From contig SDNP01000013.1 in NCBI GenBank assembly GCA_004524445.1, positions 1-64,000 on the forward strand: a stretch of 64,000 nt of DNA. Reading direction: 5' to 3'. This document shows positions 2,638 through 63,121 of the stretch, in pieces (the stretch's first letter is position 1; each line of letters opens with the position of its first letter). The position numbers and the translations under genes were made by a program. Below the pieces are notes generated by a model, which saw nothing but the letters and a program-made list of their open reading frames with translations, made no database searches and was not told the origin of the DNA. Source of the stretch: Candidatus Thorarchaeota archaeon. GTDB taxonomy: Archaea > Asgardarchaeota > Thorarchaeia > Thorarchaeales > Thorarchaeaceae.

Positions 2638-2745
2638 GCTGGGTTTTCCAGCTCTTCGTAGTAACAATTTGTGACCTATTTGCGTGACCCCGAAACGTGG
2701 CTTTGCATTATATACTAACCTTGCTCACTATTTCTTAGAAACAAA

Positions 2746-2853
2746 ATGGCTCTAACATCCAACAACCGAGTTGTCCACGAGAAGAAGAACACCACGCGAA
2801 GTACCCAGTCAACAAACGCACTGGCCTATGCTTACCAATACATTGTGAGGTGA
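2746..2853 (+). CDS. Micro-ORF 1, 35 aa (MALTSNNRVVHEKKNTTRSTQSTNALAYAYQYIVR)
   Basis: Manual translation; TTATATA box about 30 nt upstream; resembles micro-ORF 2. Confidence 0.5.
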   Translation: MALTSNNRVVHEKKNTTRSTQSTNALAYAYQYIVR

Positions 2854-2860
2854 AAACAAA

Positions 2861-4316: not shown

Positions 4317-5633
4317 TTGAGTAATAAAGACAAAGAACACCTCAATCTGGTCGTCATAGGGCACGTCGACCACGGTAAAAGCACTATGACGGGCAGATTG
4401 CTGTACGAAACGGGTGCAGTAGACGAAAGGACATTCCAAGCACACAAAGCTGAAGCTGAGAAACTTGGTCGTCCCTCCTGGGCTTGGGCTTTCGCCCTTG
4501 ACAGGCTTAAAGAAGAGCGAGAGCGCGGTCTAACTATTGACATTGCGTTCTTCAAGTTCTTAACTGACAAGTTCTACTACACCATTATTGACGCTCCTGG
4601 GCATAAGGACTTTATCAAGAACATGATTACTGGAGCATCGCAGGCTGACGTAGCTCTGCTTGTTGTTTCAGCCAAGAAGGGAGAATTTGAGGCTGGAATC
4701 GGCCCTGGCGGCCAGACCAAAGAACATGCTTACCTTGCAAAGACACTCGGTGTCGATAACCTGATTGTATGTATCAACAAGATGGACGACGAGAGCGTTG
4801 ATTACAGTGAAGACCGTTACAAAGAGGTCAAGGAAGAGGTAATGGGCTTCCTGAAGAACATCGGATTCAAGACAGATCAAGTGGAGTTCATTCCCACGTC
4901 AGCTCTGTCCGCTGCTAACCTCAAGGAACGCACTCCGGACTTGACTCCCTGGTACGAAGGAATCAGCCTTCTCGAGGCCCTGGACACTATTGAGCTTCCA
5001 CCGAAGCCCATCGACAAACCACTGCGAATACCCATCAATGACGTCTACTCTATCAAGGGCGTTGGTACTGTTCCAGTTGGCCGTGTCGAAACTGGTGTCT
5101 TGAAGCCGGGAATGAAGGTCACATTCATGCCTCCCAACAAGACTGGTGAGGTCAAGACTGTTGAGATGCATCACGAGATGCTCGATCAGGCTGTCCCTGG
5201 TGACAACATAGGCTTCAATGTAAGAGGCGTCGAAAGAAAAGATCTCGGTCGTGGAGACGTTGCAGGACCTACTGACAAGCCACCAACAGTGGCTGCAGAC
5301 TATACGGGTCAAATCATGGTCATCCAACATCCAACCGCAATAACGGTCGGGTATACCCCTGTGATCCATGCTCACACTGCGCAAATTGCGTGCAGATTTG
5401 ATGAGTTGTTACAGAAGCTCGACCAGCGGACCGGTCAGGTCACACAGGAGAATCCTGACTTCGTCAAGAGGGGTGAGAGCATGATAGCAAAGCTAGTTCC
5501 TCTCAAGCCGATGGTGATAGAGCCGTACAAGGAGCTCCCACAGTTGGGTCGCTTCGCAGTTCGTGACATGGGAATGACAGTAGCTGTAGGCGTTGTCACA
5601 AAGGTCACTCCTCGCGAACCAGGCAAGAAATAG
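4317..5633 (+). CDS. tuf: Translation elongation factor EF-1alpha
   Basis: [34 protein letters not shown]; TTG start after GGTGA SD. Confidence 0.98.
5229..5633 (+). repeat. Left copy of 405-bp direct repeat (tuf 3' end)
   Basis: Colinear and gap-free with 10772-11176; 5526-5617 is identical to 11069-11160. Confidence 0.95.
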
Positions 5634-5650
5634 TACAATCGATAGAAAGT

Positions 5651-5683
5651 GGGTCCAATAACCGGACCCTTCTCTATTTTTCT
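5651..5683 (+). terminator. tuf terminator
   Basis: GGGTCC...GGACCC stem plus TTCTCTATTTTTCT. Confidence 0.6.
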
Positions 5684-6291
5684 AACCACATTTTCATCTT
5701 CGCTTTTTGATAGGCATATGAACTAACCGCATCAAATAAATGATTGAACGGATTCGTGACATCCCCATAATCTCATGAATCACATTTCAAGCGTTGTTTT
5801 GGCTACTCTAATTTCAACCTGCTCTATATGCCAATTCGCAATTGAAACTTTTTCTCTAAAGGCCACATCCCCCTCTGATGTAAGTCCCATGGAATCTCCT
5901 GTCCAAAACTGAAGCTCGATGCCCCAGCACTCCTGCTTCCCATCTGGGGTAGAGATACACGGAAACCGTATTCCTGCTTTGCCCCTATACTTCACTGAAG
6001 CCTTTCAAGGTCAAAACATCTGCCTCTGAACATAGCTAGAAGAATTGCCTTGCTCGTTGGGGATGTATCCTGGGCTTGAAAATGGTTGCTGTTGCCTGTT
6101 CTGGGAAGTGCTGACGGTTGCAATCATGGCAAAACTTGTGAGCATTGTCTTCTAGAGGATGCGAATTGAATACAGCAATTTCCCATTTCTGTTTACTGCA
6201 ATCATTTAGCGAACGTGGTGATTGAACACTTTGCAAAAAGAGTGATGAAAATAGAATACGCTGTCCGTGTCCAAGTTACACGATAATTCTT

Positions 6292-6421
6292 GTATGTTCA
6301 TTGCACTTCGGGCAATGCTTATTCATGACTGCAGGGACCTCATCACCGATTCATATTGCATGAGCTGTGTTCGCAAAAGCTCTTGCAGTCGGTTGGCTTC
6401 TCAATCTCATCGTTTTGCACA
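6292..6421 (-). pseudogene. Orphan fragment of rpl44e 5' leader plus first ~18 codons
   Basis: About 80% identical to 62880-63011; reads M(-1 nt)VPAVMNKHCPKCNEHT versus MKVPAVMNKYCPKCKTHT. Confidence 0.88.
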
Positions 6422-6833
6422 CTTATCATTTTGAATAGAACTCATAGAACATAACTCATCAAAAAGAGATCCTAGATTGAGATTTGATTTCTATAATATG
6501 GTGTTTAATTAGACGAAAAACAGTATAAATACAATAACACCTAGAAAACTCGTCCCTGTATGCCACTATAGACCGGATAGATGAGCATTTCACGAATAGG
6601 TGGCAGCGGAGCCATTTGTCGACTGTGGTAGGTTAATAGTCATTGGGACATGAACTACTAAAGTCAACCCCCGATAACTCCACTACCGTTTTTTCCAAAA
6701 GCGCATATACCTACAGATTACACTCCCAGTGTCAATTCCATAGTTACACAGGAGATAAGCACTTATGTTCTTGGAATTCTTAAAGAGAGAGAGAAGGACT
6801 GTAATATGCATCACGGGCCCTTCTTTATGCCTA

Positions 6834-7469
6834 CTATCCAGATACTGTGATTTCAGATATATCGAACTCAAACTGAGAAGGATCGGCAACTGAACCCGAC
6901 TCACTGAATGCATATCCATGCTTATAGAGTTCTACATAGACCTCTAATGCCGCGTAATATACTACATCATTCTGGCACGAGTAACTCCACGTTGTTTCAA
7001 GTTCGCCACTAGGGGTTCCCTTAGCATAATCTGTTACACCCGAAGATGAGCAGTACGCTCTATCGTCATAGACCTCGTCTGTATCTAGAGGATTATACGC
7101 ACTATTCATCAATACAAGGCGAATCGATAAATCTGAATAACCATATAGATACCCGTCAGCAATCAGGTTGTATGTTGCAGCATAATCAACTGTACAGGTA
7201 ACTTGTCCTGTATCGCCAGCAGTGAACTGCATTGCAATCCAAAATCTACCGTAATGCACCGCATCATACGGATTTGAGCCTCTAAACTGGATTTCACCTG
7301 TATCGGTTGACACAGAAATGAAATTGAAACACCATATAGAAGCCACATAGTCCCACGCATCATAATTCGATGCGTCATCTGCACTCTCTGACCAGGCATC
7401 GACACTATTTGCTCCAATTATCACAAATAGAATCAATACTGAAATCATATATAATTCATGCTTCTTCAT
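6834..7469 (-). CDS. Secreted hypothetical protein, beta-rich
   Basis: Signal peptide MKKHELYMISVLILFVIIGANSVDA; Tyr/Asp/Ser-rich mature part. Confidence 0.7.
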   Translation of the reverse strand: MKKHELYMISVLILFVIIGANSVDAWSESADDASNYDAWDYVASIWCFNFISVSTDTGEIQFRGSNPYDAVHYGRFWIAMQFTAGDTGQVTCTVDYAATYNLIADGYLYGYSDLSIRLVLMNSAYNPLDTDEVYDDRAYCSSSGVTDYAKGTPSGELETTWSYSCQNDVVYYAALEVYVELYKHGYAFSESGSVADPSQFEFDISEITVSG

Positions 7470-7656
7470 ACTATTGCTCCTACATGCTCCCTACCACGAA
7501 AGCAATGTGAGTATATATCACCTGTTCTGTCTATTAACTCTTTCTCCAAACAAAGCGATATGCCCCGCTGATGTCATAGATGTTGCTATATTGCCCTCTG
7601 CGTCCTCTACTTGCAGTTTGAGTTGCTAATTCTGCACATCCAAAGGGATTTAGAAG

Positions 7657-8163
7657 CTAACGCCTTAAGTTGTTTGCAATTAATTTCTTGATATCAATAT
7701 AAACCAAAAAACCGAATGCCACAAGCAAAACTCCTGATGCAAGAGGTCCTTGATTAGGGGTCGGTCTTTTTATTTCAATAGTCATAAATGAAATCGATTC
7801 ATTACTTGCAGGGGTTATTAAAACAATGTACCATCCTGTGGCAGGTATTGAGATGTGGGCAGTTGTTGAAGTCCTATTTATGAACTCATACATCACCGTC
7901 GCGTTCTTTAATGACTGGTCTTCAAAAGCACTAAGACCGTTTTCATAATCCATAAAATACGCTGAGAAAGGTTCTGCTTCTCTAGATATAATATGAATAT
8001 CAATATCACTGACACACTTAACAGCATATCCCCGGTAATAACCGTGGTTTATTCCGAAATATGTATCATAGGAAGGCTCAACAAACGGGCCAGCAAATGA
8101 GAGAACTATAAGAGTGATTCCAACAAGTAATATAAATCTAGCAAGACGTGATTTGTTTTTCAT
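7657..8163 (-). CDS. Membrane protein (TM, beta-domain, TM)
   Basis: N- and C-terminal hydrophobic helices; coupled to the ABC permease. Confidence 0.7.
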   Translation of the reverse strand: MKNKSRLARFILLVGITLIVLSFAGPFVEPSYDTYFGINHGYYRGYAVKCVSDIDIHIISREAEPFSAYFMDYENGLSAFEDQSLKNATVMYEFINRTSTTAHISIPATGWYIVLITPASNESISFMTIEIKRPTPNQGPLASGVLLVAFGFLVYIDIKKLIANNLRR

Positions 8164-8164
8164 T

Positions 8165-8986
8165 CTATAGTTCAACTCTTTCAAATAACCGAATACTCAG
8201 TAAGAATGTAACTAGTCCCAGCAGGAAAGAACCAATAATCGACACCAAGACATCCATAAAAACCACTTCTGTAAATTGGTAACCAAACATATTCCTATTG
8301 GTAAAGAAATACATAGCCAGATTTACTGGATTTAATGTGCCTCTTAACACTGTTGGAAAATGTGTAAACAAGGAAACACCGAGAAGCGTGAACCAAAGAG
8401 CCATGCCACCAATTGCTGATTTTGCAGAGCTTCCCGCGATGATTGACAATACGAACGATGTTGATAAAATTGCGAAAAAGAGAGACCAAAATGCTATCAA
8501 AATGACGATGACACCGATTCCAATGCTTAGTGAATTATATAATGATAAAATGACAAATACGCTAAGAGTTATGGGTACACAAGTTATGAGAGTTATTTGC
8601 ATGGCTTTGAGGATTAAAAGATGTAGCCTCTTAATTGGATAAGATAGAGTAATCCTAAACATATCATTTTCAAGTTGTCCAGCTACTCTAAATGCACTTA
8701 ATAGGGGTATCAGAGCCATGAGGAGAACTGTCATACTGACCAATGGCATGCCTAAGGAATAGAGGGCTGCCTGCCTGACATACTCTGAAACACGATCCAG
8801 CTCAATTTCAGACACCCATTGCGATGTTGGATTAATAAGAAACCCAATTTTGAATCCCTGTTGAATAATGAGAAGAGATGTGAGCGTTGTCAGTGTCATG
8901 AAGACTGCTTCCGCTGAAGGAAATGGAAATGAAACATCTAACTCAAACTCGAAGATAGCACGAACACGCTTAAGCAATCTATCCAT
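8165..8986 (-). CDS. ABC-2 type permease
   Basis: About 6 TM; 'ENDMFRITLSYPIKRLHLLILK' ABC-2 loop. Confidence 0.8.
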   Translation of the reverse strand: MDRLLKRVRAIFEFELDVSFPFPSAEAVFMTLTTLTSLLIIQQGFKIGFLINPTSQWVSEIELDRVSEYVRQAALYSLGMPLVSMTVLLMALIPLLSAFRVAGQLENDMFRITLSYPIKRLHLLILKAMQITLITCVPITLSVFVILSLYNSLSIGIGVIVILIAFWSLFFAILSTSFVLSIIAGSSAKSAIGGMALWFTLLGVSLFTHFPTVLRGTLNPVNLAMYFFTNRNMFGYQFTEVVFMDVLVSIIGSFLLGLVTFLLSIRLFERVEL

Positions 8987-9899
8987 TCCGCATTACCTCC
9001 ACAAATGCTTGCTCAAGTGAATGTGATTTTTCCATTTCATACACATTAACGCCCTTCAGTCTAGCACAACGCTCAATATCTGTTCTTAATTGCTTAGGAT
9101 TATTAGTTGTCACCATGATGGTTAATGTCTTTGCACCTGTAACTTCTACATGCATAACATCATTAATGGTCTGGAGGTCCTTACAAAGGATGTGAGGGTC
9201 AGAAACAACAACATTATACTGGTTTGATGAGTATTCATTAATTATCTCCTGAATAGGACCCTGAACAACCGTTTTGCCCTTATTGATGAATGCAACATTA
9301 TCACATACCCGTTCAAGTTCCGAAAGTACATGCGAAATGATACAAAAAGATACACCTTCATTTCTATGTACATCCCGTATAGTTCTCAGTAAATCTACTC
9401 GAGCCATAACATCAAGATTGGAGGTGGGTTCATCAAGGAACACCAATTCAGGCTTCCCAATTAGAGCTTGTGCAATACCAAGTTTTTGATGCATCCCTGC
9501 AGAAAGGGCACGAATTCTGCGCTCCTTAGCATTCAGGAGTTCCACTCGTTTCAACAGTATATCGATATCTTCACTCGTTTCGTAAAGGTTTGAAACGCGT
9601 TTGAGGAAATGGCCAACAGTTAGTGATGAGGGATATGTTGGACGTTCATGTAATACGCCTATTCGTTGTCTAATCTCAAAGGAGTGTGTAGCAGTATCCT
9701 GCTCTAGGACTATTGAGCTTCCCCCATCTGCTTCGATAAGACCTAAGAGAATTCTCAATAACGTTGTTTTCCCTGCACCATTTGGTCCAATGAGCCCAAA
9801 TACGCCATAATCCATTCTTAATGATAGTTTATCAAGTGCTATTATGTTTCCAAATCGTTTTGTAAGATTATGCACCGATACAATTGTATTGCCCTTCAA
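8979..9899 (-). CDS. ABC transporter ATP-binding protein
   Basis: GPNGAGKT, LSAGMHQ, FLDEPT, H-loop ISH; TTG at 9899 is the likely start. Confidence 0.93.
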   Translation of the reverse strand: MKGNTIVSVHNLTKRFGNIIALDKLSLRMDYGVFGLIGPNGAGKTTLLRILLGLIEADGGSSIVLEQDTATHSFEIRQRIGVLHERPTYPSSLTVGHFLKRVSNLYETSEDIDILLKRVELLNAKERRIRALSAGMHQKLGIAQALIGKPELVFLDEPTSNLDVMARVDLLRTIRDVHRNEGVSFCIISHVLSELERVCDNVAFINKGKTVVQGPIQEIINEYSSNQYNVVVSDPHILCKDLQTINDVMHVEVTGAKTLTIMVTTNNPKQLRTDIERCARLKGVNVYEMEKSHSLEQAFVEVMRNG

Positions 9900-10411
9900 T
9901 GCGGCCTCACCAAGACTTAAGCAGTAACTATACTGAATCCTATTATTTGTATCTTTTTTCCCATTGAATTGCGGATGAGAAGTAAGAGTAATCCAATGGG
10001 CTTTGTACACACACTTAATGAAAGGTTTTGGGAATCCTACAACAAACAGCTTGATGATTGGGCTGTCGTTCATGGGCTGCCATCAGACACTTCTCAGCTC
10101 TCTCAAATAGACCCTCTTCTTTGATAATCAGTCCAGCTTAGGTGACCTGTTCAACATGGCTGTCGAGGAAGAGATAATGACGGAAACAGCAGCAGGTGAG
10201 TTGTGGGGCGGTCCTGTCCGGATGAAAGCTATGTAGAACATCCTTTCAAAATCATATGAAGTCACGGGAGGAGTACTCAGTTTCAGCTATTACGGTGTCA
10301 TGATGTTTAAGCTGATGGTCGCATTCCAGTTCGCATCATATGCATTAATGGTTGGTGCAGTTGTAGGTGGACTGTGAAGGTACTGGAAGAGGAGTTCTCT
10401 TCAGCCACCTC

Positions 10412-10720
10412 CTACACTTTTTCAAGAAACTTGGTACTTGCAATTCGCGCCTCGACTTCAGTAGGCAGTGGAGTTTCAGGGTCATCACGGTTGTATCTCA
10501 TACCTTTTCTTACCCAGCTATTAAGCCAGTCCTCAAGCCCCCTTTCATTGAAGAGGTAGGAAACAACACCCCTCTTTGAGCTCTTTTCCATCAATATGAG
10601 TAATACTTCTTCCCCCTGCTCCCGCATTTGGTCCACTTGAGCAAGCATCTCATGCACCGCTTCCCACGTTGTAACAATCTCAGAGAAGTACCAGTCCTCG
10701 TATTTAGGGTTGTGAATCAT
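10412..10720 (-). CDS. Hypothetical protein
   Basis: 102-aa ORF with protein-like composition at the island's right edge. Confidence 0.5.
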
Positions 10721-10744
10721 CCTACTATATCATTCACGCTCCGG

Positions 10745-10767
10745 CTAGATAAAGCTAATTTATCTAG
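10745..10767. promoter_or_regulatory. Perfect 9-bp inverted repeat CTAGATAAA-GCTAA-TTTATCTAG
   Basis: Seen directly; 4 nt from the start of the tuf repeat and 25 nt upstream of ORF 10412-10720. Confidence 0.5.
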
Positions 10768-10771
10768 TGCA

Positions 10772-11176
10772 GTCGAAAGAAAAGACCTCGGTCGCGGTGA
10801 TGTTGCAGGACCAACTGACAAGCCTCCAACAGTGGCTGCAGACTACACAGGTCAGATCATGGTCATTCAGCACCCAACAGCCATTACTATTGGCTGCACA
10901 CCGGTCATTCACGCTCATACAGCCCAGATTGCCTGCAGATTCGATGAACTGCTGCAGAAACTGGACCAGCGCACCGGACAAGTGGTTGAGGAGAATCCTG
11001 ATTTTGTCAAGCACGGTGAGTCAATGATCGCCAAGCTTGTGCCACTGAAGCCCATGGTCATCGAGCCATACAAGGAGCTCCCACAGTTGGGTCGCTTCGC
11101 AGTTCGTGACATGGGAATGACAGTAGCTGTAGGCGTTGTCACAAAGGTCACTCCTCGCGAGCCAAGCAAGAAATAG
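10772..11176 (+). pseudogene. EF-1alpha 3' fragment (end of domain II plus domain III); right copy of the direct repeat
   Basis: 128/134 aa identical to tuf; no start or G domain; followed by its own hairpin and U-tract (11198-11233). Confidence 0.92.
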
Positions 11177-11312
11177 TTTAACCCATACTAGCAGAACCGG
11201 GCCAGCGCGGCCCGTGTTCCATTCTTCTTTTCTATCATATATTGAATATTCTACAGCGAAATATGGAAAACCTATAAGAAATCAGTTCCCTATATGACAT
11301 GAGAGAAGCAAA

Positions 11313-11510
11313 TTGCTAGGCATATATCTAGTATTCCTATTTGGGGGGGTTCTCTTATTGGCATGGTACCTGAGCCGTGATAAGAGAGTGAAGCACTCAA
11401 CAGATCCCGCATTCGAAATACAACAAATGGAACAAGAAGCACTTGAAAAGAGGATACGCTATTTACAGGATTATGTGGCGGCAACGAGTAGGAAAGCTCC
11501 CACAGAATGA
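11313..11510 (+). CDS. Small single-TM protein with coiled-coil-like tail
   Basis: N-terminal hydrophobic helix, then EIQQMEQEALEKRIRYLQDY. Confidence 0.5.
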   Translation: MLGIYLVFLFGGVLLLAWYLSRDKRVKHSTDPAFEIQQMEQEALEKRIRYLQDYVAATSRKAPTE

Positions 11511-11716
11511 ATACGATCAATTCTGTTTTATCCAGGACTAGAAAGAAACAGCGAATTATCTTGACTTGCACCTTGTTTTGAATCGTTCCAGGCTGCAATT
11601 CACAAAGCCTCCCAAAAATGGATTATTAGCTCCAAGAAGATAATCTAACATCGGCGCCTACCCAAGTCAACATTTAACTATATTTAACAAGAATATTTCG
11701 TAAGTGTGATGAAACT

Positions 11717-12349
11717 GTGATTGATGTTTCTCTGCTGCGGATACTGGCAGGAATCTTGCTGACTTCATCTTTTTTGCTGATCTATCAAGTGAACTCCGGA
11801 GGAAACAAAGATAGTGAAGGCTTTGATGTGAAGAAAGAGGTTATTGAGCCACCATCAATTCAGGTTGCGGGGAACATAGTGACCATTTTTGTACCGATGA
11901 TTGCCGTTGTCCTCCTGATTCTTTTCCCTGGGACAGTCTATGGAACAGTCCTAAACATCCAGTTCTATGGCAATACACTCATCCAAGTTCTGGGAGTAGT
12001 CATCTACCTTGCAGGGGCAATCCTTCTATTATGGAGTAGTAAGACTCTTGGCAAGTACGATACAGGGAGAATAGCGGTGGCTGAGGATCATATACTAGTT
12101 GACACAGGTCCGTATGCGAGAGTCCGTCATCCTGGATATGTTGCCACATTCATGTTAGCACTCTCTGTTTTTCTCATTTTGCTGAATATAATCCTCGTTC
12201 TCGACTTGATTGCGGCAGCAGCCTATTTCGTCTATAGGGCTCGGCTTGAAGAGGACCTTTTGTCTTCCGAAGAGAATCTTGGTGATCAGTATCGAACATA
12301 TATACAGCGAACCGGTCGATTCTTTCCTAGGTTGGGGAGAAACCCATAA
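11717..12349 (+). CDS. Isoprenylcysteine carboxyl methyltransferase/PEMT family membrane protein
   Basis: LVDTGPYARVRHPGY, RARLEED, YIQRTGRFFP. Confidence 0.88.
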   Translation: MIDVSLLRILAGILLTSSFLLIYQVNSGGNKDSEGFDVKKEVIEPPSIQVAGNIVTIFVPMIAVVLLILFPGTVYGTVLNIQFYGNTLIQVLGVVIYLAGAILLLWSSKTLGKYDTGRIAVAEDHILVDTGPYARVRHPGYVATFMLALSVFLILLNIILVLDLIAAAAYFVYRARLEEDLLSSEENLGDQYRTYIQRTGRFFPRLGRNP

Positions 12350-12351
12350 AA

Positions 12352-12690
12352 TTATGAGAAAATCACTTCTTCCCTGATTTTTGTGCGCATTTTGGACATT
12401 TTTGAAAAGAAATGAGCATAGGCCTTTGCTACCTTGTCTCTTTTATTATTGAGCAGCCAATCAAGTGATGAATAGTCGGGTACCCAAAAGACCCACATCG
12501 AATCCATATCTCCGCCTATACCGTCAGTCGCTGCGAAAATCCCATGTATCCAATCCGCCTCTTGGACAGCCTCATGAAGCTCGACTGCGGCATGAACTTG
12601 GTCTGGCTCTGTGTCACTAGTTGCCGGCCAACTAAATTCTACAATGAGATACAATCCGGGTGTCTGTTTATCGCATGTCATTCGTGTCAC
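12352..12690 (-). CDS. Hypothetical protein (alpha+beta barrel-like)
   Basis: 112-aa ORF, alternating beta/alpha pattern. Confidence 0.55.
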   Translation of the reverse strand: MTRMTCDKQTPGLYLIVEFSWPATSDTEPDQVHAAVELHEAVQEADWIHGIFAATDGIGGDMDSMWVFWVPDYSSLDWLLNNKRDKVAKAYAHFFSKMSKMRTKIREEVIFS

Positions 12691-12838
12691 CTGTTCTGCT
12701 TGCAGTTCACTTTATGCCATGTTCCCGAAAGAGATAAGGTAGCTACTTTCCTCACAGTTGATAGGTCCTATGGTTTATTTGTTCAAAATACTAATACTAT
12801 AATGAAGCCATAATTGGATATAGGTCATGGGATGAATA

Positions 12839-13078
12839 ATGATACTTTTGTACGGCATCATTGGTGCCATAATTTTTTTCATTCTTCTTTATCTTTACAG
12901 TACTACTTTGAGGAGCAGACACAGCACAAAGGGTGTTCTGGAGGAAAGCGACCCGCAAGATCATGTAGTAATGTTCACCCCTGAGAGGTATCATGGCGGT
13001 AAAACCGGCCCCTCAGACAACAAGTGGGTGGCACTAGGCGGAAAAGACCTCGGTTCCATCTATGACGATGATGATTAG
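12839..13078 (+). CDS. Small single-TM hypothetical protein
   Basis: N-terminal TM helix, acidic tail. Confidence 0.55.
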   Translation: MILLYGIIGAIIFFILLYLYSTTLRSRHSTKGVLEESDPQDHVVMFTPERYHGGKTGPSDNKWVALGGKDLGSIYDDDD

Positions 13079-13144
13079 CTCAAATATCGGTAGTCATGTC
13101 GAAGGAGTATTATTCAGTCACTAGCACCAGAAATACGATGGCAA

Positions 13145-13342
13145 ATGGCACAAGAAGCCTCCCCTAAGAATGTTTCAGAGGAGTATCGTAGAATCATTCT
13201 TCTCTTTTTGCTATTTTTGCTGGTGTCCCCTGGTGCTTTCATAATATTCATTGGCCCAGAAAACTTAGCTCCTGTCATCCTCCTTCTCTCAGTTCCCTTA
13301 TCACTATCAATCGTGTATTGGATAGTGAGAAGGAATAGGTGA
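13145..13342 (+). CDS. Small two-TM hypothetical protein
   Basis: Two hydrophobic helices flanked by Arg residues. Confidence 0.55.
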   Translation: MAQEASPKNVSEEYRRIILLFLLFLLVSPGAFIIFIGPENLAPVILLLSVPLSLSIVYWIVRRNR

Positions 13343-13410
13343 TGGCTCCAGCAATCGGCAATCATAAAGCAATATCTGGAAAAATGCACCAACGAGGTCT
13401 GTGTTCACTA

Positions 13411-13836
13411 ATGATTGATGAAGGGGAAAAGGGGCATGATGAATCCGGCTTGAATAAACGGTCAAGATGCTGTCGGTGGACTGTCTTTGGAGTAATTGGA
13501 GTATTAGCTATTATTACGCTCTTCTTAACATTCCTGTATTCCCCATTCGAAACAATTGTTCCCTTCTCCTTACTAGCTATCCCAATAGTTGTTTTCCTGG
13601 TGTATGTTGCATATCGGTGGGCATCTGGTAGCTCTGTATCAGGTTATAACAGCGGACAGGATGAAAGAATTCTCGAGAGCATGAGAAAGCATGCTCTTCG
13701 TGCAGAGAGAGTTGGTGATTTCGAAATGTACAGGTGCCCAGGCTGTCAAATCTCTTTTGAAATTGTTAATGCACTGCCAATTGAAGATGATACGGTGCTT
13801 TGCCCGCATTGTGGGACCCGCCTGTTAGTAGGATAA
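13411..13836 (+). CDS. Two-TM protein with C-terminal Zn ribbon
   Basis: CPGC...CPHCG. Confidence 0.65.
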   Translation: MIDEGEKGHDESGLNKRSRCCRWTVFGVIGVLAIITLFLTFLYSPFETIVPFSLLAIPIVVFLVYVAYRWASGSSVSGYNSGQDERILESMRKHALRAERVGDFEMYRCPGCQISFEIVNALPIEDDTVLCPHCGTRLLVG

Positions 13837-17027: not shown

Positions 17028-17342
17028 TGCGGCAGATCCACCTCATCGTATGTCGGTAGGCGCTGGACTGAACAGTGCGGTTCTCAGAGCAGCTACCTCC
17101 GGGGCTCCACAACCCCTCGTTAGTGCTGTTCCCGCCAGGACCTGACACGGTTCCGAGGATTAAGCTACTCACAGCAATCCTACGATTACTGCTGTAGCAG
17201 AAGCGGACTCCAGAGACCGCTCATCAACGTCCCGCAGCTGGGTCCAACGGTTTCCCGGTTCATTCTCAGTGGTGGTTACTGGCTCCGGCTATTGCCATAC
17301 CGGTTACAGGTCGCGGCAAACGACCCAGCCCTACCTGCCGCA
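17028..17342 (-). ncRNA. ffs: SRP (7S) RNA
   Basis: Terminal GCGGCAG/CTGCCGC helix; Alu helices 3 and 4 with UGUAA and complementary loops; helix 6 GUAG loop; helix 8 GUGUCAGGUCC-UGGC-GGGAACAGCAC. Confidence 0.9.
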
Positions 17343-23769: not shown

Positions 23770-24132
23770 ATGGTAAGGACTGGACCAACTGACCCTAATA
23801 CACGCGCGTTAATTAATGCGCTTAGAAAGACTTCAACGAAACACGATACTGGAATTTGGAAACGAGTGGCTGAGCTGTTATCTGCACCAACTAGAAAACG
23901 GGCCACAGTCAATGTCAGCAAGATTCAGCGACATACCAACGATGGTGATGTCATCGTAATACCTGGAAAGGTACTGGGCTCAGGAATTCTAACGAACAAA
24001 GTCACAGTGGCTGCATTAAACGCATCAACATCTGCTAGGTCGATGATTATTGATGCTGGCGGTTCTCTAATTTCAATCCACGAGTTATTGAATCAGGCTC
24101 CCAGCGGAAAAGGAGTAACGATAATTACATAG
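23770..24132 (+). CDS. rpl18e: 50S ribosomal protein L18e
   Basis: IWKRVAELL, VNVSKI, PGKVLGSG. Confidence 0.95.
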   Translation: MVRTGPTDPNTRALINALRKTSTKHDTGIWKRVAELLSAPTRKRATVNVSKIQRHTNDGDVIVIPGKVLGSGILTNKVTVAALNASTSARSMIIDAGGSLISIHELLNQAPSGKGVTIIT

Positions 24133-29864: not shown

Positions 29865-30839
29865 ATGTCAGTTAAATTGGTGGACTTATTTTGTGGTGCA
29901 GGCGGTTTCTCAACAGGATTCGCTCAGCTGAAGCCGTCTCTGCATGTTGGCATTGATTATGACCAAATCGCCTTGGAAACCTTTTCTCGGAATCATCCTG
30001 ATGGAATAACATATCACACTGATATCAGTACGCTCCACGCCAATCATATCATCTCAATGCTTGATGGCCATCCTGACATTGTTTTGGCTTCTCCTCCATG
30101 TGAGGAGTTCAGTTTGGCGAATCCAAAGAGTGCAGAGTCTGCTATAAATCGTATCTACGGTGATGGTAGTGCACGGCTTATACTTGATGCAATTCGTCTG
30201 ATTGGCGATCTCAACCCCTCCGTTTTCATTATAGAAAATGTCGCGGCTGTTCTGAAAGGCGATGGAGCGAGTGTAATCAGGTCAGAATTAGAACGAATTG
30301 GGATGGACAGAATCCACTTCAATTTGATTAGGTGCCATCATCACGGGAACCCATCTAAACGGTTGCGGGTCTTCATCAGTAATAGAAAAATCCGGCTATC
30401 CAAAACAATTCCCTCCAGAGTTATAGATGTAATCGGTGATCTCCCTCCACTTGATGTGACTACCATTCTCTCACCACATAGGCATATGCCTAACCACGAC
30501 TATGTTCCTGTGAGCAAAGACAAACTAAAACGGATTCGACGGACACGTTGGGGCTTTGGAGCAAGACATGTACGTGTATCAAGGAGGCGCACCCTGAAGG
30601 ATTGGGTTCGTCTTCATCCCAAGCAGGTGTCCACATCAATAATTGGAAAGTCTAGATACATCCACCCCTATGAAAATCGACTACTAACAGTGAGAGAGCA
30701 TGCTCGATTGATGTCCTATCCCGATGAATATATTTTCAAAGGACATACCGATAGTCAGTTCGACCAAGTTGGAGAAAGTGTTCCCCCAGTAGTTTCACAG
30801 AAGATTGCAGAGGAGGTAATGAGACAAATTGACAAATAA
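29865..30839 (+). CDS. C5-cytosine methyltransferase (orphan)
   Basis: DLFCGAGG, SPPC, ENV, LTVREHARL, GESVPP. Confidence 0.9.
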   Translation: MSVKLVDLFCGAGGFSTGFAQLKPSLHVGIDYDQIALETFSRNHPDGITYHTDISTLHANHIISMLDGHPDIVLASPPCEEFSLANPKSAESAINRIYGDGSARLILDAIRLIGDLNPSVFIIENVAAVLKGDGASVIRSELERIGMDRIHFNLIRCHHHGNPSKRLRVFISNRKIRLSKTIPSRVIDVIGDLPPLDVTTILSPHRHMPNHDYVPVSKDKLKRIRRTRWGFGARHVRVSRRRTLKDWVRLHPKQVSTSIIGKSRYIHPYENRLLTVREHARLMSYPDEYIFKGHTDSQFDQVGESVPPVVSQKIAEEVMRQIDK

Positions 30840-34117: not shown

Positions 34118-35212
34118 ATGATTAATCGTAAGAGAATTCCTAAACTACTCGCTGTGGCAATCACTCTAATGATATTCATATCCGGAGTCCAGTGTTCAGC
34201 AAAGGCTCAAGACACCGAGCTAGACCCCATTGTAGTGATGTACGAAGCCAGCCATGCTCCACAATTTTCTGCAGATAATGCTGAAGACGGGCTCAAATTA
34301 ATGTTGGATATGGTCAACGAGTCAACACGCTACCTTCTGCGGGTTAATCATGAACCCCTCAATGATACAATTCTTGAGGATGTTGATATTCTAATAATAG
34401 CGGAGCCCGATGAGAGTGCTGAGTTTGAACATGAAGAAATTCTTGCCATTGATGAGCTCTTAACTAATGGCAGTTCCCTTTTTATTTTAGGTGACCCCAG
34501 CATCGACCAAAACTCGGCATACTGGAGCAATCAGCAATTTAGAGATTTAGGTGAAAATGTTGCCATCAATACATTTCTAGATCAGATGAACATTACAACA
34601 GTAAGATTTGGTCTTAATGAATCAGCAACTGGTCGAATTTTTGGTGACACCATGTTTGATTACGAGCATTCGTTGAATTCATCGTATCCTTCAATTATTC
34701 AATTCGATTCCACTACGTGGGATACAAGCCACCCGATTTTCAAGGATATTAATACAGTAATATCCATGACGGCAACTCTCAAACCTATTGACCTGGTGAG
34801 TGGAATTGCCCATGGGTATGAGACCTCTTTTGCACAATACCGGCGTGGGCCAAACACATTCGGGAACCTTACGTTTCCCAATATGACTTTGGAAGAATTT
34901 CAAGAAGCTCCGAAATCATATTCCGCCATAAACGGGACATTCCCTCCATGGCTCTCTGCCTTTCGATATGGCAATAGCAGAATTGTTGTGGGAGGCTCCG
35001 CATTGATGTTTACGGGACGTAATCTCGACTTGCCGGAGAGTGAAGAAAAGTGGTTCTATCAGGGAGATAATTCTAGGTTATTCATGAACATTATGAGCTG
35101 GCTTTCATATGACTTTGTCAACCCTGAAAGTCCAATTCTTCCTATGTTGATTATCTCATCAGTAATCTTATTGATTGGGGTAGCATACTACCTCTTCAAG
35201 AAACTGAGATAG
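34118..35212 (+). CDS. Type I membrane protein with GldG/DUF4350/Wbp1(OST48)-like extracytoplasmic domain
   Basis: Signal peptide, YEASH, DILIIAEP...F...E..AI.E.L.NGSSLFILGD, DNSRLFMNIMSWL, C-terminal TM ending KKLR. Confidence 0.65.
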   Translation: MINRKRIPKLLAVAITLMIFISGVQCSAKAQDTELDPIVVMYEASHAPQFSADNAEDGLKLMLDMVNESTRYLLRVNHEPLNDTILEDVDILIIAEPDESAEFEHEEILAIDELLTNGSSLFILGDPSIDQNSAYWSNQQFRDLGENVAINTFLDQMNITTVRFGLNESATGRIFGDTMFDYEHSLNSSYPSIIQFDSTTWDTSHPIFKDINTVISMTATLKPIDLVSGIAHGYETSFAQYRRGPNTFGNLTFPNMTLEEFQEAPKSYSAINGTFPPWLSAFRYGNSRIVVGGSALMFTGRNLDLPESEEKWFYQGDNSRLFMNIMSWLSYDFVNPESPILPMLIISSVILLIGVAYYLFKKLR

Positions 35213-35216
35213 ATAC

Positions 35217-35837
35217 TCACCATTTGGGCAGTTTGAAATCCTGTTCTTGCAGGCTCTCTTGAATTGCTCGTTTCAGCTCTCCCACTCCTTCCTTTTTGCG
35301 AGCTGACATTGCTACAATATGTGGCATTTGCGTTGGAACTGCCTCATGCAACTTGTGGTACAAGAACGCAATTTCTTCATCTCGTCGTCTATGACTCACT
35401 TTGTCAATCTTGTTTGCGGCCACAATTACCTTCGGTGATATCTCCGAGAGAAAAGAATAGAATTCTATGTCTATCGGTATTTCTCCTCTCTCTTCCCAAC
35501 GCTCTACCAGTTCTCTGAAAATTGAAATATCTATAATCAATACGCACAGAGCAATTTGGTCGCTTCGCTTTTCAAGGTTTCTTACAATCCGGGTCTTGGT
35601 GTGATCAATGCGTCTCCTACTTTGGCCCGACATATGCCCAAAACCTGGAATATCGATAAAAAGCACATTACCCAAGTCTATGATTTGCTCGGTTCGAGTA
35701 CTACCAGGTTTTTTTCCGACTCGAATCCGAAGTCCTGTTAAAGCCCTAATTACGCTGCTTTTCCCAACGTTACTTCGGCCTGCAAAAATGACAAGCGGTT
35801 TTCCGGATTCAATCCCAGAAGGGTCGTGTACGCTCAT
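35217..35837 (-). CDS. engB: GTP-binding protein EngB/YsxC
   Basis: GRSNVGKSS, GKKPGST, DIPGFG, NKID. Confidence 0.9.
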   Translation of the reverse strand: MSVHDPSGIESGKPLVIFAGRSNVGKSSVIRALTGLRIRVGKKPGSTRTEQIIDLGNVLFIDIPGFGHMSGQSRRRIDHTKTRIVRNLEKRSDQIALCVLIIDISIFRELVERWEERGEIPIDIEFYSFLSEISPKVIVAANKIDKVSHRRRDEEIAFLYHKLHEAVPTQMPHIVAMSARKKEGVGELKRAIQESLQEQDFKLPKW

Positions 35838-42971: not shown

Positions 42972-45900
42972 GTGAATGATTCACGACCTCCTCTTCCAAA
43001 GCATAGTGTCAGCTACAAAGAATACTTCGACTCTCTTAGTGAACAGATAGATGAGATATACAAAGTGGCTGAAAAAGCTAGAGCTACAGGATGGGATCCC
43101 GCACCAAGGGTAGAAATACCAAAAGCCCATGATGTGGCCGCGCGTGTGGAGGCTACTCTTGATGGTCCTACTGGTGTAGCTAGCCGCATACGGGAGCTAC
43201 AGGAACAAAACTCTCGAGAAGAGGTAGCGTTTCAAGTCGCTAAGGAAATCGCCCAGGGAACTCTAGGAAACATTACTGATATGGAAAAAGCGGCTGATAA
43301 GGCGGTACGTGTTGCCTTGGCTATTCTCACAGAGAGTATCACTGCAGCCCCTCTTGAAGGGATCTCCAAAGTGCGGATCCATGACCCCAAGGGAACTCCT
43401 TATTTGGCCCTTTATCTTGCGGGACCCATCAGGGCTGCAGGCGGTACAGAGGCGGCCGTAACAGTCTTGGTTGCTGATTATGTTAGACAAGTTCTTGGTC
43501 TACCTGCATTCGTTGCTACAGAAGAAGAAGTTGAGCGATCGTTGGAAGAAGTTGAGCTGTATGCTCGGTCTGTTCATCTTCAGTACCCCGTTCATCCCGA
43601 GCTTGTGCGATTTGCGGCTTCAAATCTGTCTATAATGCTGACTGGTGATCCAACTGAAGAGTTCGAGGTGTCTGCTGGACGCAACCTAGATAGAATTGAA
43701 ACCAATAGAGTTCGGGGCGGATCAGTTTTAGTCTTGAATGATGGTGTGGTAGGCAGGGCATCAAAACTAGCTAAGATTGTACATAGCCTCAAGATATCTG
43801 GCTGGGAGTGGCTGGATGAACTTGCCGCAAAGATGTCAAAAGCTGATGCTAGCGAATCCGAAGAAACATCCACGAAGGAATTGGAACCCAAATCTGACTA
43901 TCTCGCGGATGTGATTGGTGGCAGACCCGTATTTGCTCATCCCTCCAGAATTGGAGGATTTCGTCTTCGATATGGGCGGTCAAGAAACACAGGTCTCGCT
44001 GGAGTTGGGGTTCATCCTGCAACTATGCTCTTGGTTGACGAATTTCTGTCCCCTGGAACGCACATTCGCACAGAACGCCCTGGTAAGGGTTCAATCGTAG
44101 CTCCAGTTGATACCATTGAGGGGCCTATAGTTTTGCTAGAAGGCGGAGAAGTTCGGCAGATATTTTCATATACAGAGGCTAAGAAAGTAGCAGATAAGGT
44201 TCAAAGAGTTCTATATCTGGGGGACATTCTTATCGCTTTAGGCGAATTTTTGGAAAACAACCATCCACTTGTGCCATCGGGTTACTGTGAGGAATGGTGG
44301 TCCCATGATTTGGAGAATGCGTATACTGGACTAAGTAGCACTGAGTCGGAAAAGATTCTTCATGATAAATCCGTTTCAATTGATGAAATCAATGCCCTAA
44401 TCGAATCACCACTCTCTCTGATTCCTCGTCCCGAGAAGGCTCTTGATATCTCTCTGGCACTTGATATCCCTCTTCATCCAAGATACACTTGGCGGTGGCA
44501 AGCTCTTTCAGTTAACGAATTTCTCGAATTGAGGAGCTGGATTTTATCTTCACTTACAGAATCAAAAAACAAGAAAGAAGATTCCATCACTTTGCCCCAC
44601 CACCTCGAAAACAAGAAACTTCTAGAAAAGATGGGAACTCCTCATTCCCTAGATGATGAAAACAATCTATTGATTACAGCAGCTCTAGATGTGATATTGG
44701 CTCAGTTGGGTGATAGTAAATCGACTCCAATCGGAGAAACCCCTCTTGAAGCCGTCAATTCGGTATCAAAAGTCGAGATTCGAGACCGAGTCGGTTTCTC
44801 TATTGGAGCTCGCATGGGTCGCCCTGAAAAAGCTGAAGTTAGAAAAATGCGCCCAGCAGTTCATGTACTATTTCCGGTGGGCCGTGCAATGGCCAGTGAG
44901 CGTCGAATCGAGCGAGTTGCTGAGGGCGTTGAATCTGTGGCAAAACTAGACTCATTCCATATAACTGACCGTCAAGATCGGGCACCCACAAAAGAAAAAC
45001 AAAAATCTGGTATTGAGGTCGAGCTCGTAAATAGGCAGTGCCCCGAGTGTGGGGAGAAAACCTTCAAAGCTAAATGTCCGGCATGTGGGACACATACAGA
45101 AACCCAACTCTTTTGTTCTCATGTCGATTCTCGTGGGGAAAAATGTGATCTTCCTCTTGACAAATCAAAGGGCACCTGTCCCCGCGGACATGATCTCAAT
45201 CTGTTACTCTCAACGGATAGAGTATTTGTTGACATTCAGGATGAGCTGAATCAAGTCAAAATGATGCTAAACGAGCCACAGACTTATGACTTGAGAGGCG
45301 TTCTTGGCCTGACCAATGATCTCAAAATTCCCGAGTTCTTAGGTAAAGGGGTGTTGAGGGCGAAACACGATGTGTACTGCTATCGCGATGGGACAGCACG
45401 GTTCGATGCCACTGATGCACCTTTGACACATTTCACGCCAAACGAAATCGGTGTACCCTTCTGGAGACTAAGAGAACTGGGATACCATTCCGATTATGAT
45501 GGCGAACCACTGACTTCTGATAACCAGACTCTTGAGTTGAAAGTTCAAGATATTATCATTCCTGAGAAATGTGCAGAATACATGATACGAGTCGGAAATT
45601 TTGTCGATGATTGTTTAGATAAGATATATGGTCTCGAACGGTTCTATAATTTCTCTGTGCCAGAAGACGTGATTGGACATTTAGTCATCGGCCTCGCTCC
45701 TCATACATCAGCTGGAATCATTGGACGAATCATAGGTTTTACTACAGCGAGTCTTTCATACGCTCATCCTTATTGGCATGCAGCCAAGCGCCGTAATTGT
45801 GACGGTGATGAGGATGCCATCATTCTCGTCATGGACGCATTAACGAATTTTTCAAGGCACTATCTTCCGAAGGGACGGGGCGGGTTCATGGATGCCCCTC

Positions 45901-62650: not shown

Positions 62651-62932
62651 CTAAACTCTGGAAATTTCAACCTTTTTGAGTCTCATACCATCGGTCTGAA
62701 TGGTATATCCACATTCTCGACATTTTAATTTGAGTACCGTCTTCTTTGTTGTCTTGGCGAATCGTTTCTGAATCTGCTTTGGAAATGAACCATACCCCTT
62801 TGTCTTTCTCTTCATCCGTCGAGCACCTTGGGCCATTGGGCTCTGTGCCCCCTTTTTGTAAATACTTGTGCTATGCTCAGTATGCGTCTTGCACTTGGGG
62901 CAATATTTGTTCATTACGGCAGGGACCTTCAT
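62651..62932 (-). CDS. rpl44e: 50S ribosomal protein L44e
   Basis: MKVP...YCPKCKTHT...GYG...KTTKK...CREC. Confidence 0.95.
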   Translation of the reverse strand: MKVPAVMNKYCPKCKTHTEHSTSIYKKGAQSPMAQGARRMKRKTKGYGSFPKQIQKRFAKTTKKTVLKLKCRECGYTIQTDGMRLKKVEISRV

Positions 62933-63121
62933 CATCAATTCACCTTTGCATGGAACGTGTTCGCTAAAGCTCTCGCAGTCGGTTGGCTTCTTAATCTTAT
63001 CGTTTTGCACAAAGGTAAGATCGAGATACCTAGACATGCGTTAGAATTTGAAAGACATTATGACGGTATTAATTCAAAGCATGGTATCAAAACTAGCCAG
63101 AACGAACACACCTTTTAGTTA

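Follow-up and report, generated by a model that had tools for sequence, protein, structure and literature searches.

Displaced tuf and rps12 gene ends in a Thorarchaeota genus: candidates for homology-anchored insertion of DNA without a dedicated recombinase

We analysed a window of 64,000 nucleotides (nt) from Candidatus Thorarchaeota archaeon (assembly GCA_004524445.1, contig SDNP01000013.1, positions 1 to 64,000), in which tuf, the gene for the elongation factor EF-1alpha, is followed downstream by a diverged copy of its own last 405 nt. The copy is best read as the 3' end that the EF-1alpha gene formerly had and that has since been displaced. For its origin we favour, with moderate confidence, a recombinase-free and homology-anchored insertion into conserved genes, in which DNA of related lineages was taken up and gene conversion between the copies followed. 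In a sister species, the displacement of a native gene end by a foreign one was observed at a second conserved gene, rps12.

The window is contig C30 of a metagenome bin (G000; 64 contigs, 5.4% contamination). It was compared with the bin of a sister species of the same genus (G001), in which the tuf locus lies on a 267-kb contig; both bins are 90-94% complete. A third case was provided by P0123, a public relic protein encoded on a 9.3-kb JGI/ENA contig, and 86 genomes of the family were surveyed for extra tuf pieces.

A diverged copy of the tuf 3' end

The features around the repeat are as follows (aa, amino acids).

4317-5633, plus strand: tuf (aEF-1alpha), intact working gene of 438 aa, 99% identical to the protein of the sister species
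5229-5633, plus strand: left copy of the repeat (repeat search, MAFFT), which forms codons 304-438 (3' module) of the working tuf; divergence between G000 and G001 rises here from about 5% to about 17-20%
5526-5617, plus strand: 92-nt tract identical to 11069-11160, a putative crossover or gene-conversion tract
5634-5692, plus strand: tuf-proximal tail with a terminator hairpin at 5651-5669, homologous to the tail after tuf in G001
5693-10411: G000-specific, AT-richer cargo, absent from G001
10412-10720, minus strand: conserved 102-aa gene with no assigned function, 64% identical to the gene at the equivalent place in G001
10721-10771: conserved spacer that reaches up to the relic's first codon and probably contains the TATA box of the 102-aa gene; in G001 an in-frame TGA is present here
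10772-11176, plus strand: displaced tuf 3' module (relic), which lacks a conserved start codon and has the invariant GYTP motif altered by Y>C
11177-11474, plus strand: relic-proximal tail with its own terminator at about 11195-11235; the G001 relic is followed by a homologous tail
17030-17340, minus strand: archaeal signal recognition particle (SRP) RNA (Rfam RF01857, 113.5 bits), which lies close behind tuf in other genera

The genome contains one tuf plus one relic. The alignment of 5229-5633 with 10772-11176 by repeat search and MAFFT is free of gaps, and blastn gave 83.7% identity over 406 nt. The two copies differ at 66 of 402 coding positions, with 55 synonymous (Sd) and 11 nonsynonymous (Nd) differences by the Nei-Gojobori method, and six of 134 residues are changed in the relic (V>I, Y>C in GYTP, T>V, Q>E, R>H, and G>S). 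The 92-nt identical run sits within sequence of about 20% divergence, which has a chance of about 2e-7. A hairpin followed by a T-run stands after each copy, and the two terminators are different from one another. The sequence-only reading of this DNA had described an indel-free, mostly synonymous 405-bp repeat with a separate terminator for each copy, and alignment, translation, and the two hairpins bear out this description.

The insert relative to the family and its counterparts in relatives

In other genera of the family, homologues of 13339-13836, the SRP RNA, and a 598-aa gene follow within 0.1-0.5 kb 3' of tuf. Because tuf in these genera directly adjoins homologues of the genes from 13339 onward, the stretch of about 5634-13300 is inserted DNA relative to the family. 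Extra tuf pieces were confined to this genus among the 86 genomes.

The layout recurs in G001 with other contents. There, tuf is followed by the homologous 60-nt tail, 2.7 kb of unrelated cargo, and a 98-nt tuf 3' piece with a third terminator; beyond it come the orthologous 102-aa gene, a 405-nt relic that starts from the equivalent codon, and the homologous tail. P0123 shares the relic junction (37/40 residues of its junction region match G000), but its module is a different one, which equals the working type of G000 plus one change and is seven residues off the G000 relic. The turnover of the relic is seen directly in this protein. Orphan tuf 3' fragments, which had been proposed as something to look for in relatives, are represented by the G001 relic and by P0123, with different cargo in G001.

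An assembly chimera joined at the repeat was considered, as the window comes from a bin of many contigs with some contamination and the 92-nt identical tract could mislead a short-read assembler. However, the junction of the relic 5' end to non-tuf DNA must exist in real DNA, and the independent genome G001 shows an equivalent architecture, the pairing of each copy with a terminator, and an identical tract elsewhere; a third assembly has the architecture too. Because G001 has the equivalent layout and junction with different cargo and P0123 shares the junction, we regard an assembly error as very improbable.

Separate history of the tuf 3' module

Between G000 and G001, tuf shows 93-99% identity up to about position 5220 and 80-83% beyond it, whereas neighbouring genes show 83-87%. 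The third-position divergence was 0.12 in codons 1-303 and 0.45 in codons 304-438 (p = 2e-13), with values of 0.14-0.34 for the neighbouring genes. The ratio of 3' to 5' divergence was 3.7 here against 1.3-1.7 in same-genus control pairs elsewhere in the family. A history of the 3' module different from that of the rest of tuf is supported by these comparisons.

When the two working and the two relic modules are compared over their first 210 nt, they are 37-48 differences apart from one another, or about 20%, which equals the distance to the tuf of other genera. Quartet analysis of the same 210 nt gave 3, 5, and 5 informative sites for the three possible pairings, none of which is favoured. 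Further downstream, the copies of G001 are identical over module nt 211-300 and those of G000 over nt 298-389. Because these tracts lie at different places in the two genomes, they appear to reflect gene conversion or crossing over inside each of the genomes. Concerted evolution alone was ruled out, as the first 210 nt lack any within-genome likeness of the copies. The possibility that the copies are sisters with uniform neutral divergence, as a plain tandem duplication would leave them, did not agree with the data either: the quartet favours no pairing, and plain duplication was rejected because the copies differ almost only synonymously and in a mosaic. Codon-usage scoring of the four modules left the native one undecided; the first 70 codons of the working module of G000 were the least typical, which is a weak hint.

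Only four EF-1alpha proteins of the genus type were found among 5.8 billion public proteins, and an 11-residue mid-segment of the G000 relic is absent from all four. Scans of viral contigs and metagenomes with a degenerate pattern of the genus-specific tuf C-terminus gave no match.

Three observations concern tuf itself. Codon 17 of the module (5277-5279 and 10820-10822), which encodes a residue in TD-x-PP, is the sole hypervariable position of the module in this genus, with K, Q, E, or N across working genes and relics. At window positions 4632-4811, tuf of G000 and G001 shows 0-1 differences over about 180 nt, compared with about 5% in the rest of the gene, and a recent exchange between the two lineages may account for it. 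The tuf of another genome (G015, C45:19594-23104) matches the query as three pieces with short gaps and may carry small inserts or introns.

Displaced gene ends at rps12

In G001, the region C2:16705-35400 contains one full rps12 and three successive 3' relics of it, at C2:23537-23797, 30250-30606, and 34849-35049; in the farthest one, 12 nt are deleted and a stop is present. Only one rps12 occurs in G000, with the native 102-aa paralogue after it, and because of this adjacency G000 represents the empty site for the first rps12 island. Relic 1 of G001 differs by 5.4% from the working 3' end of G000, whereas the working end of G001 differs by 13.8% from the same sequence (p = 0.0016). Because relic 1, and not the working end, matches the rps12 of G000, the native end is the displaced one. 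At rps12, the inserted DNA thus brought a foreign gene end and displaced the native end downstream.

The boundaries at the two genes are not uniform. The foreign tract in rps12 of G001 starts near nt 100, and relic 1 starts from nt 186, about 86 nt further in. The 5' boundaries of the relics are at about nt 186, 213, and 234 for rps12 and at nt 913 and 1219 for tuf. At tuf, the jump in divergence begins about 9 nt before 5229, with five differences in those 9 nt. Of the open reading frames (ORFs) with 100 aa or more in the rps12 islands, about half were tested; among them are genes for a subtilase, for proteins with SBBP repeats, and for ABC-2 transporters. Relic 3 directly adjoins 45 nt of an ABC ATPase gene.

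These data bear on an old segmental duplication within the lineage, in which similarity would be kept by gene conversion and no foreign DNA would be involved. Such a history would agree with the identical tracts between the copies in each genome, with the working-type module in the relic of P0123, and with the recurrence of paralogous 102-aa genes and ABC-2 operons in the region. On the other side, the copies are not sisters over the first 210 nt, their divergence is synonymous rather than neutral, the vertical copy at rps12 is the relic and not the working end, and the cargo is AT-richer and missing from the sister species. We therefore consider this duplication improbable.

The genes of about 102 aa form a genus-specific family that adjoins rps12 ends or relics and the tuf relic. 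Its members are at window 10412-10720 (minus strand), at G000:C33:141205-141483, and at G001:C2:17348-17599, 23817-24095, 35101-35361, and 44812-45111. Family profiles, PHROGs, and the ESM Atlas gave no lead for this family.

Relics without translation but with the look of selected genes

The start codon for the tuf relic is not conserved. In G001 an in-frame TGA stands directly 5' of the module, and in G000 the upstream open frame is the antisense of the 102-aa gene. Translation of the relic was ruled out by the upstream stop in G001 and by the lack of a conserved start. Between the relics of the two genomes there are nevertheless 80 synonymous and 11 nonsynonymous differences, where about 69 of the latter would be expected under neutrality, and neutral decay of an ancestral relic was ruled out by these changes, which are synonymous almost throughout. 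Because the changes are overwhelmingly synonymous despite the missing conserved start and the stop in G001, we conclude that the relics belonged to working tuf genes until recently. Against this stands the homology of their flanks between the two species, at about background divergence.

One could instead take the copy for a functional gene or for a 3' exon that encodes an alternative EF-1alpha domain III, given its conservation at the protein level in three genomes. The TGA directly before the G001 module, the lack of a conserved start codon, and the antisense frame in G000 speak against it, and so do changes at one or two invariant residues per relic (Y>C in G000, D>N in G001). This interpretation is by far too improbable to be retained.

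Searches for recombinases

No recombinase or transposase was detected among the large ORFs of the G000 tuf island with Pfam, PHROGs, and NCBIfam, or among its 47 small ORFs with Pfam. The ORFs of the G001 tuf island contained nothing element-like, and no recombinase was found among the ORFs tested in the rps12 islands. Six-frame searches of G000 and G001 with PF00589, PF16795, and PF00239 gave no match above the cut-off; the best had E = 0.19 and lay on another contig. The claim made from the window alone, that the island holds no recombinase or transposase, thus also withstood profile and six-frame searches of both genomes.

Cas1 was not found in G000, and in G001 it occurs only on other contigs. 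No terminal inverted repeats were found at the island ends. A casposon was ruled out on these grounds, namely no Cas1 in G000 and no inverted repeats at the ends. As a separate observation, no tyrosine recombinase exceeded the cut-off in either bin, not even an enzyme of the XerA type, whose absence could reflect bin incompleteness or divergent enzymes.

Proposed mechanism

In the mechanism that we propose, DNA of a related Thorarchaeota lineage would enter the chromosome, with the conserved tuf as a homologous anchor for the host recombination machinery. On the incoming DNA, a tuf 3' end of its own would come first, then a terminator and the cargo; the other extremity would join at codon 304 of a tuf 3' end, and the previously working end would be pushed downstream. 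No site-specific recombinase would take part, and gene conversion between the copies would later yield the identical tracts. The enzymology may consist of RadA-type homologous recombination together with an illegitimate or a second homologous join, and the direction of displacement at tuf is presumed equal to that at rps12. The process is recurrent in the genus, as the cargo slot differs by species, relics are renewed at the junction, and three displaced ends lie at rps12.

We favour this homology-anchored insertion because two conserved genes were hit in one genus, the relic boundaries vary, the foreign tracts start upstream of them, stray gene fragments are present, and no recombinase was found. 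The sequence-only reading had proposed that DNA of a related lineage entered without a recombinase by a Campbell-type crossover over the tuf 3' end. Its first part holds up, given the insertion, the lack of a detectable recombinase, the separate history of the module, and the displacement at rps12. As to the second part, direct repeats of the tuf arm do flank the whole insert, as a Campbell-type crossover requires, but a circle fits rps12 less well than a linear fragment. With regard to the form of the donor DNA, we infer that a linear fragment with a one-sided anchor and an illegitimate far join fits better than a circle, because the 5' boundaries of the relics vary and the foreign tract starts upstream of them.

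Several points weigh against homology-anchored insertion. No empty tuf allele was found within the genus. The two bins are incomplete, and a recombinase that works in trans may therefore be unbinned. The far join is presumed to be illegitimate, and renewal of the relic at a fixed junction would need a two-step path, with a tandem intermediate and then a deletion. The modules are near synonymous saturation yet differ by only 1-4% in protein, compared with 6-13% for genes of the family at similar distance; this low protein divergence is not fully explained by the mechanism, but it would be expected if the modules came from a pool that is carried by islands and strongly selected for compatibility. 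Finally, the tuf relic junction is equal in G000, G001, and P0123, as is also expected of a fixed attachment core, and the first 14 nt (G000) or 30/32 nt (G001) of both copies agree within each genome and differ between genomes (for example, AGA vs CGG).

The last two points agree with an integrative element of the e14/phage 21 type, which would carry a replacement 3' end of its target gene beside its attachment site, recombine at a core near codon 304, and leave the host end as a pseudogene at its far side, with the integrase lost or unbinned. The architecture matches icd/icdC around e14 (PMC13626634), and insertion of archaeal elements into the 3' ends of protein genes, that of EF-2 among them, is on record (PMC6563490). 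Such an element is the main rival, a possible but less likely origin. Neither the tuf islands nor the tested ORFs of the rps12 islands contain an integrase or a remnant of one, and the three integrase and recombinase profiles gave nothing above the cut-off. Furthermore, the relic boundaries differ (405 vs 98 nt at tuf, three starts at rps12), two different genes were hit in one genus, the foreign tract starts upstream of the relic boundary, and the cargo is without element-like genes.

A tentative extension of homology-anchored insertion, which we put forward as speculation, is based on such a pool of modules: a self-perpetuating family of recombinase-free islands, the ends of which are a synonymously diverged copy of the last domain of an essential gene and the junction to the previous copy. 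Transfer between related species would proceed purely by host homologous recombination, and each transfer would install its own gene end and displace that of the recipient as a fresh relic. If true, this would explain both the untranslated but selected-looking relics in three genomes and a module that coalesces deeper than the species.

Cargo and other features of the window

The remaining features of the insert are as follows.

6301-6421, minus strand: orphan fragment of the rpl44e 5' end with its leader, 84% identical to 62889-63011
6834-7469, minus strand: ORF of 211 aa with no family match
7657-8184, minus strand: accessory gene of the ABC-2 operon (175 aa); its 168-aa counterpart in the paralogous operon on contig C33 is 26% identical
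8165-8986, minus strand: ABC-2 type permease (273 aa) with a patchy distribution in the family; the best match (48%) is in G018
8979-10073, minus strand: ABC transporter ATPase of 364 aa, with no orthologue in G001
11475-13193: second G000-specific block, with an ICMT/PEMT-like methyltransferase (11717-12349) and small ORFs; the G001 counterpart is 370 nt

The cargo has a GC (guanine plus cytosine) content of 0.37-0.42 compared with 0.44-0.51 in the flanks. These values and the rpl44e piece agree with the initial description of AT-richer cargo with decayed fragments. The intact rpl44e gene is 56 kb away in the window. The closest public relatives of the cargo ATPase are 85% and 82% identical, one of them from Thorarchaeota by its NCBI name and the other from a JGI contig, and a metagenome search with this protein returned only distant relatives. 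The unknown cargo ORFs of G000 and G001 had no match in Pfam, PHROGs, or NCBIfam.

A self-comparison of G000 for relics of core genes yielded the tuf and rpl44e cases only; the other same-contig repeats are small paralogous genes. Outside the insert, window 2659-2854, which overlaps a cluster of small ORFs, is repeated at G000:C9:80800-80992 (196 nt, 88% identity). A dispersed family of repeats of about 200 nt, 80-88% identical and not assigned in nature, occurs in G000 at C4:3567-3777, C7:15306-15519, C7:87252-87462, C29:49573-49754, C33:34360-34577, and C41:4253-4386.

Implications and comparison with known systems

If homology-anchored insertion is true, Asgard archaea, here an uncultivated group close to eukaryotes, would gain accessory genes without the enzymes of classical mobile elements, and their most conserved genes would be the landing pads. 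A displaced gene end would be the dated scar of each event. Successive acquisitions would then be recorded in the relic arrays of rps12 and tuf, which could serve to measure the rate, donors, and tract lengths of recombination between lineages. As a caution, a marker gene of these genomes, such as tuf or rps12, can have a xenologous 3' part.

In Escherichia coli, the e14/phage 21 insert in icd supplies a replacement 3' end and has the icdC pseudogene at its far side; the ends of icd and icdC differ mostly synonymously, and loss of the insert rebuilds a chimeric gene (PMC13626634). The tuf locus is similar, in that a working hybrid target gene and a displaced 3' pseudogene flank the insert. Unlike e14, which has its own integrase and a fixed core, no integrase was found here and the relic boundaries vary. 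Further differences are the larger size of the duplicated piece (405 nt), the nature of the target, which encodes an essential translation factor in an Asgard archaeon, and the involvement of rps12 as a second gene in the genus.

Integrated elements and casposons of Thaumarchaeota sit in the 3' ends of protein genes, including EF-2, and use an integrase or Cas1 with short att sites or target-site duplications (PMC6563490). The EF-2 elements share with the present case the 3'-distal part of an elongation factor as the insertion point, a preserved reading frame, and tandem insertions (PMC6563490), but the repeat here is of 405 nt and no Cas1 occurs in G000. The published accounts of Asgard mobile elements with which we compared our data mention neither elongation-factor targets nor such repeats.

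A further known process is homology-facilitated illegitimate recombination, which works from a one-sided homologous anchor and was shown experimentally in naturally transformable bacteria. The present case resembles it in that a conserved stretch anchors foreign DNA, the far end would join without long homology, no dedicated recombinase is needed, and inserts and joins are variable. At both tuf and rps12, the foreign tract begins inside the conserved anchor gene, as this process requires. The inserted DNA is foreign to the recipient lineage, since the sister species lacks the AT-richer cargo, the permease is patchy in the family, and the rps12 relic is the vertical copy. The variable relic starts, and the gene fragments (rpl44e, ABC ATPase) at or near junctions, may be indirect signs of microhomology joining. 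Unlike the bacterial examples, the present case comes from an archaeon and from genome comparison alone; the far join lies inside the anchor gene, the native end is kept as a relic, and the events stack into arrays.

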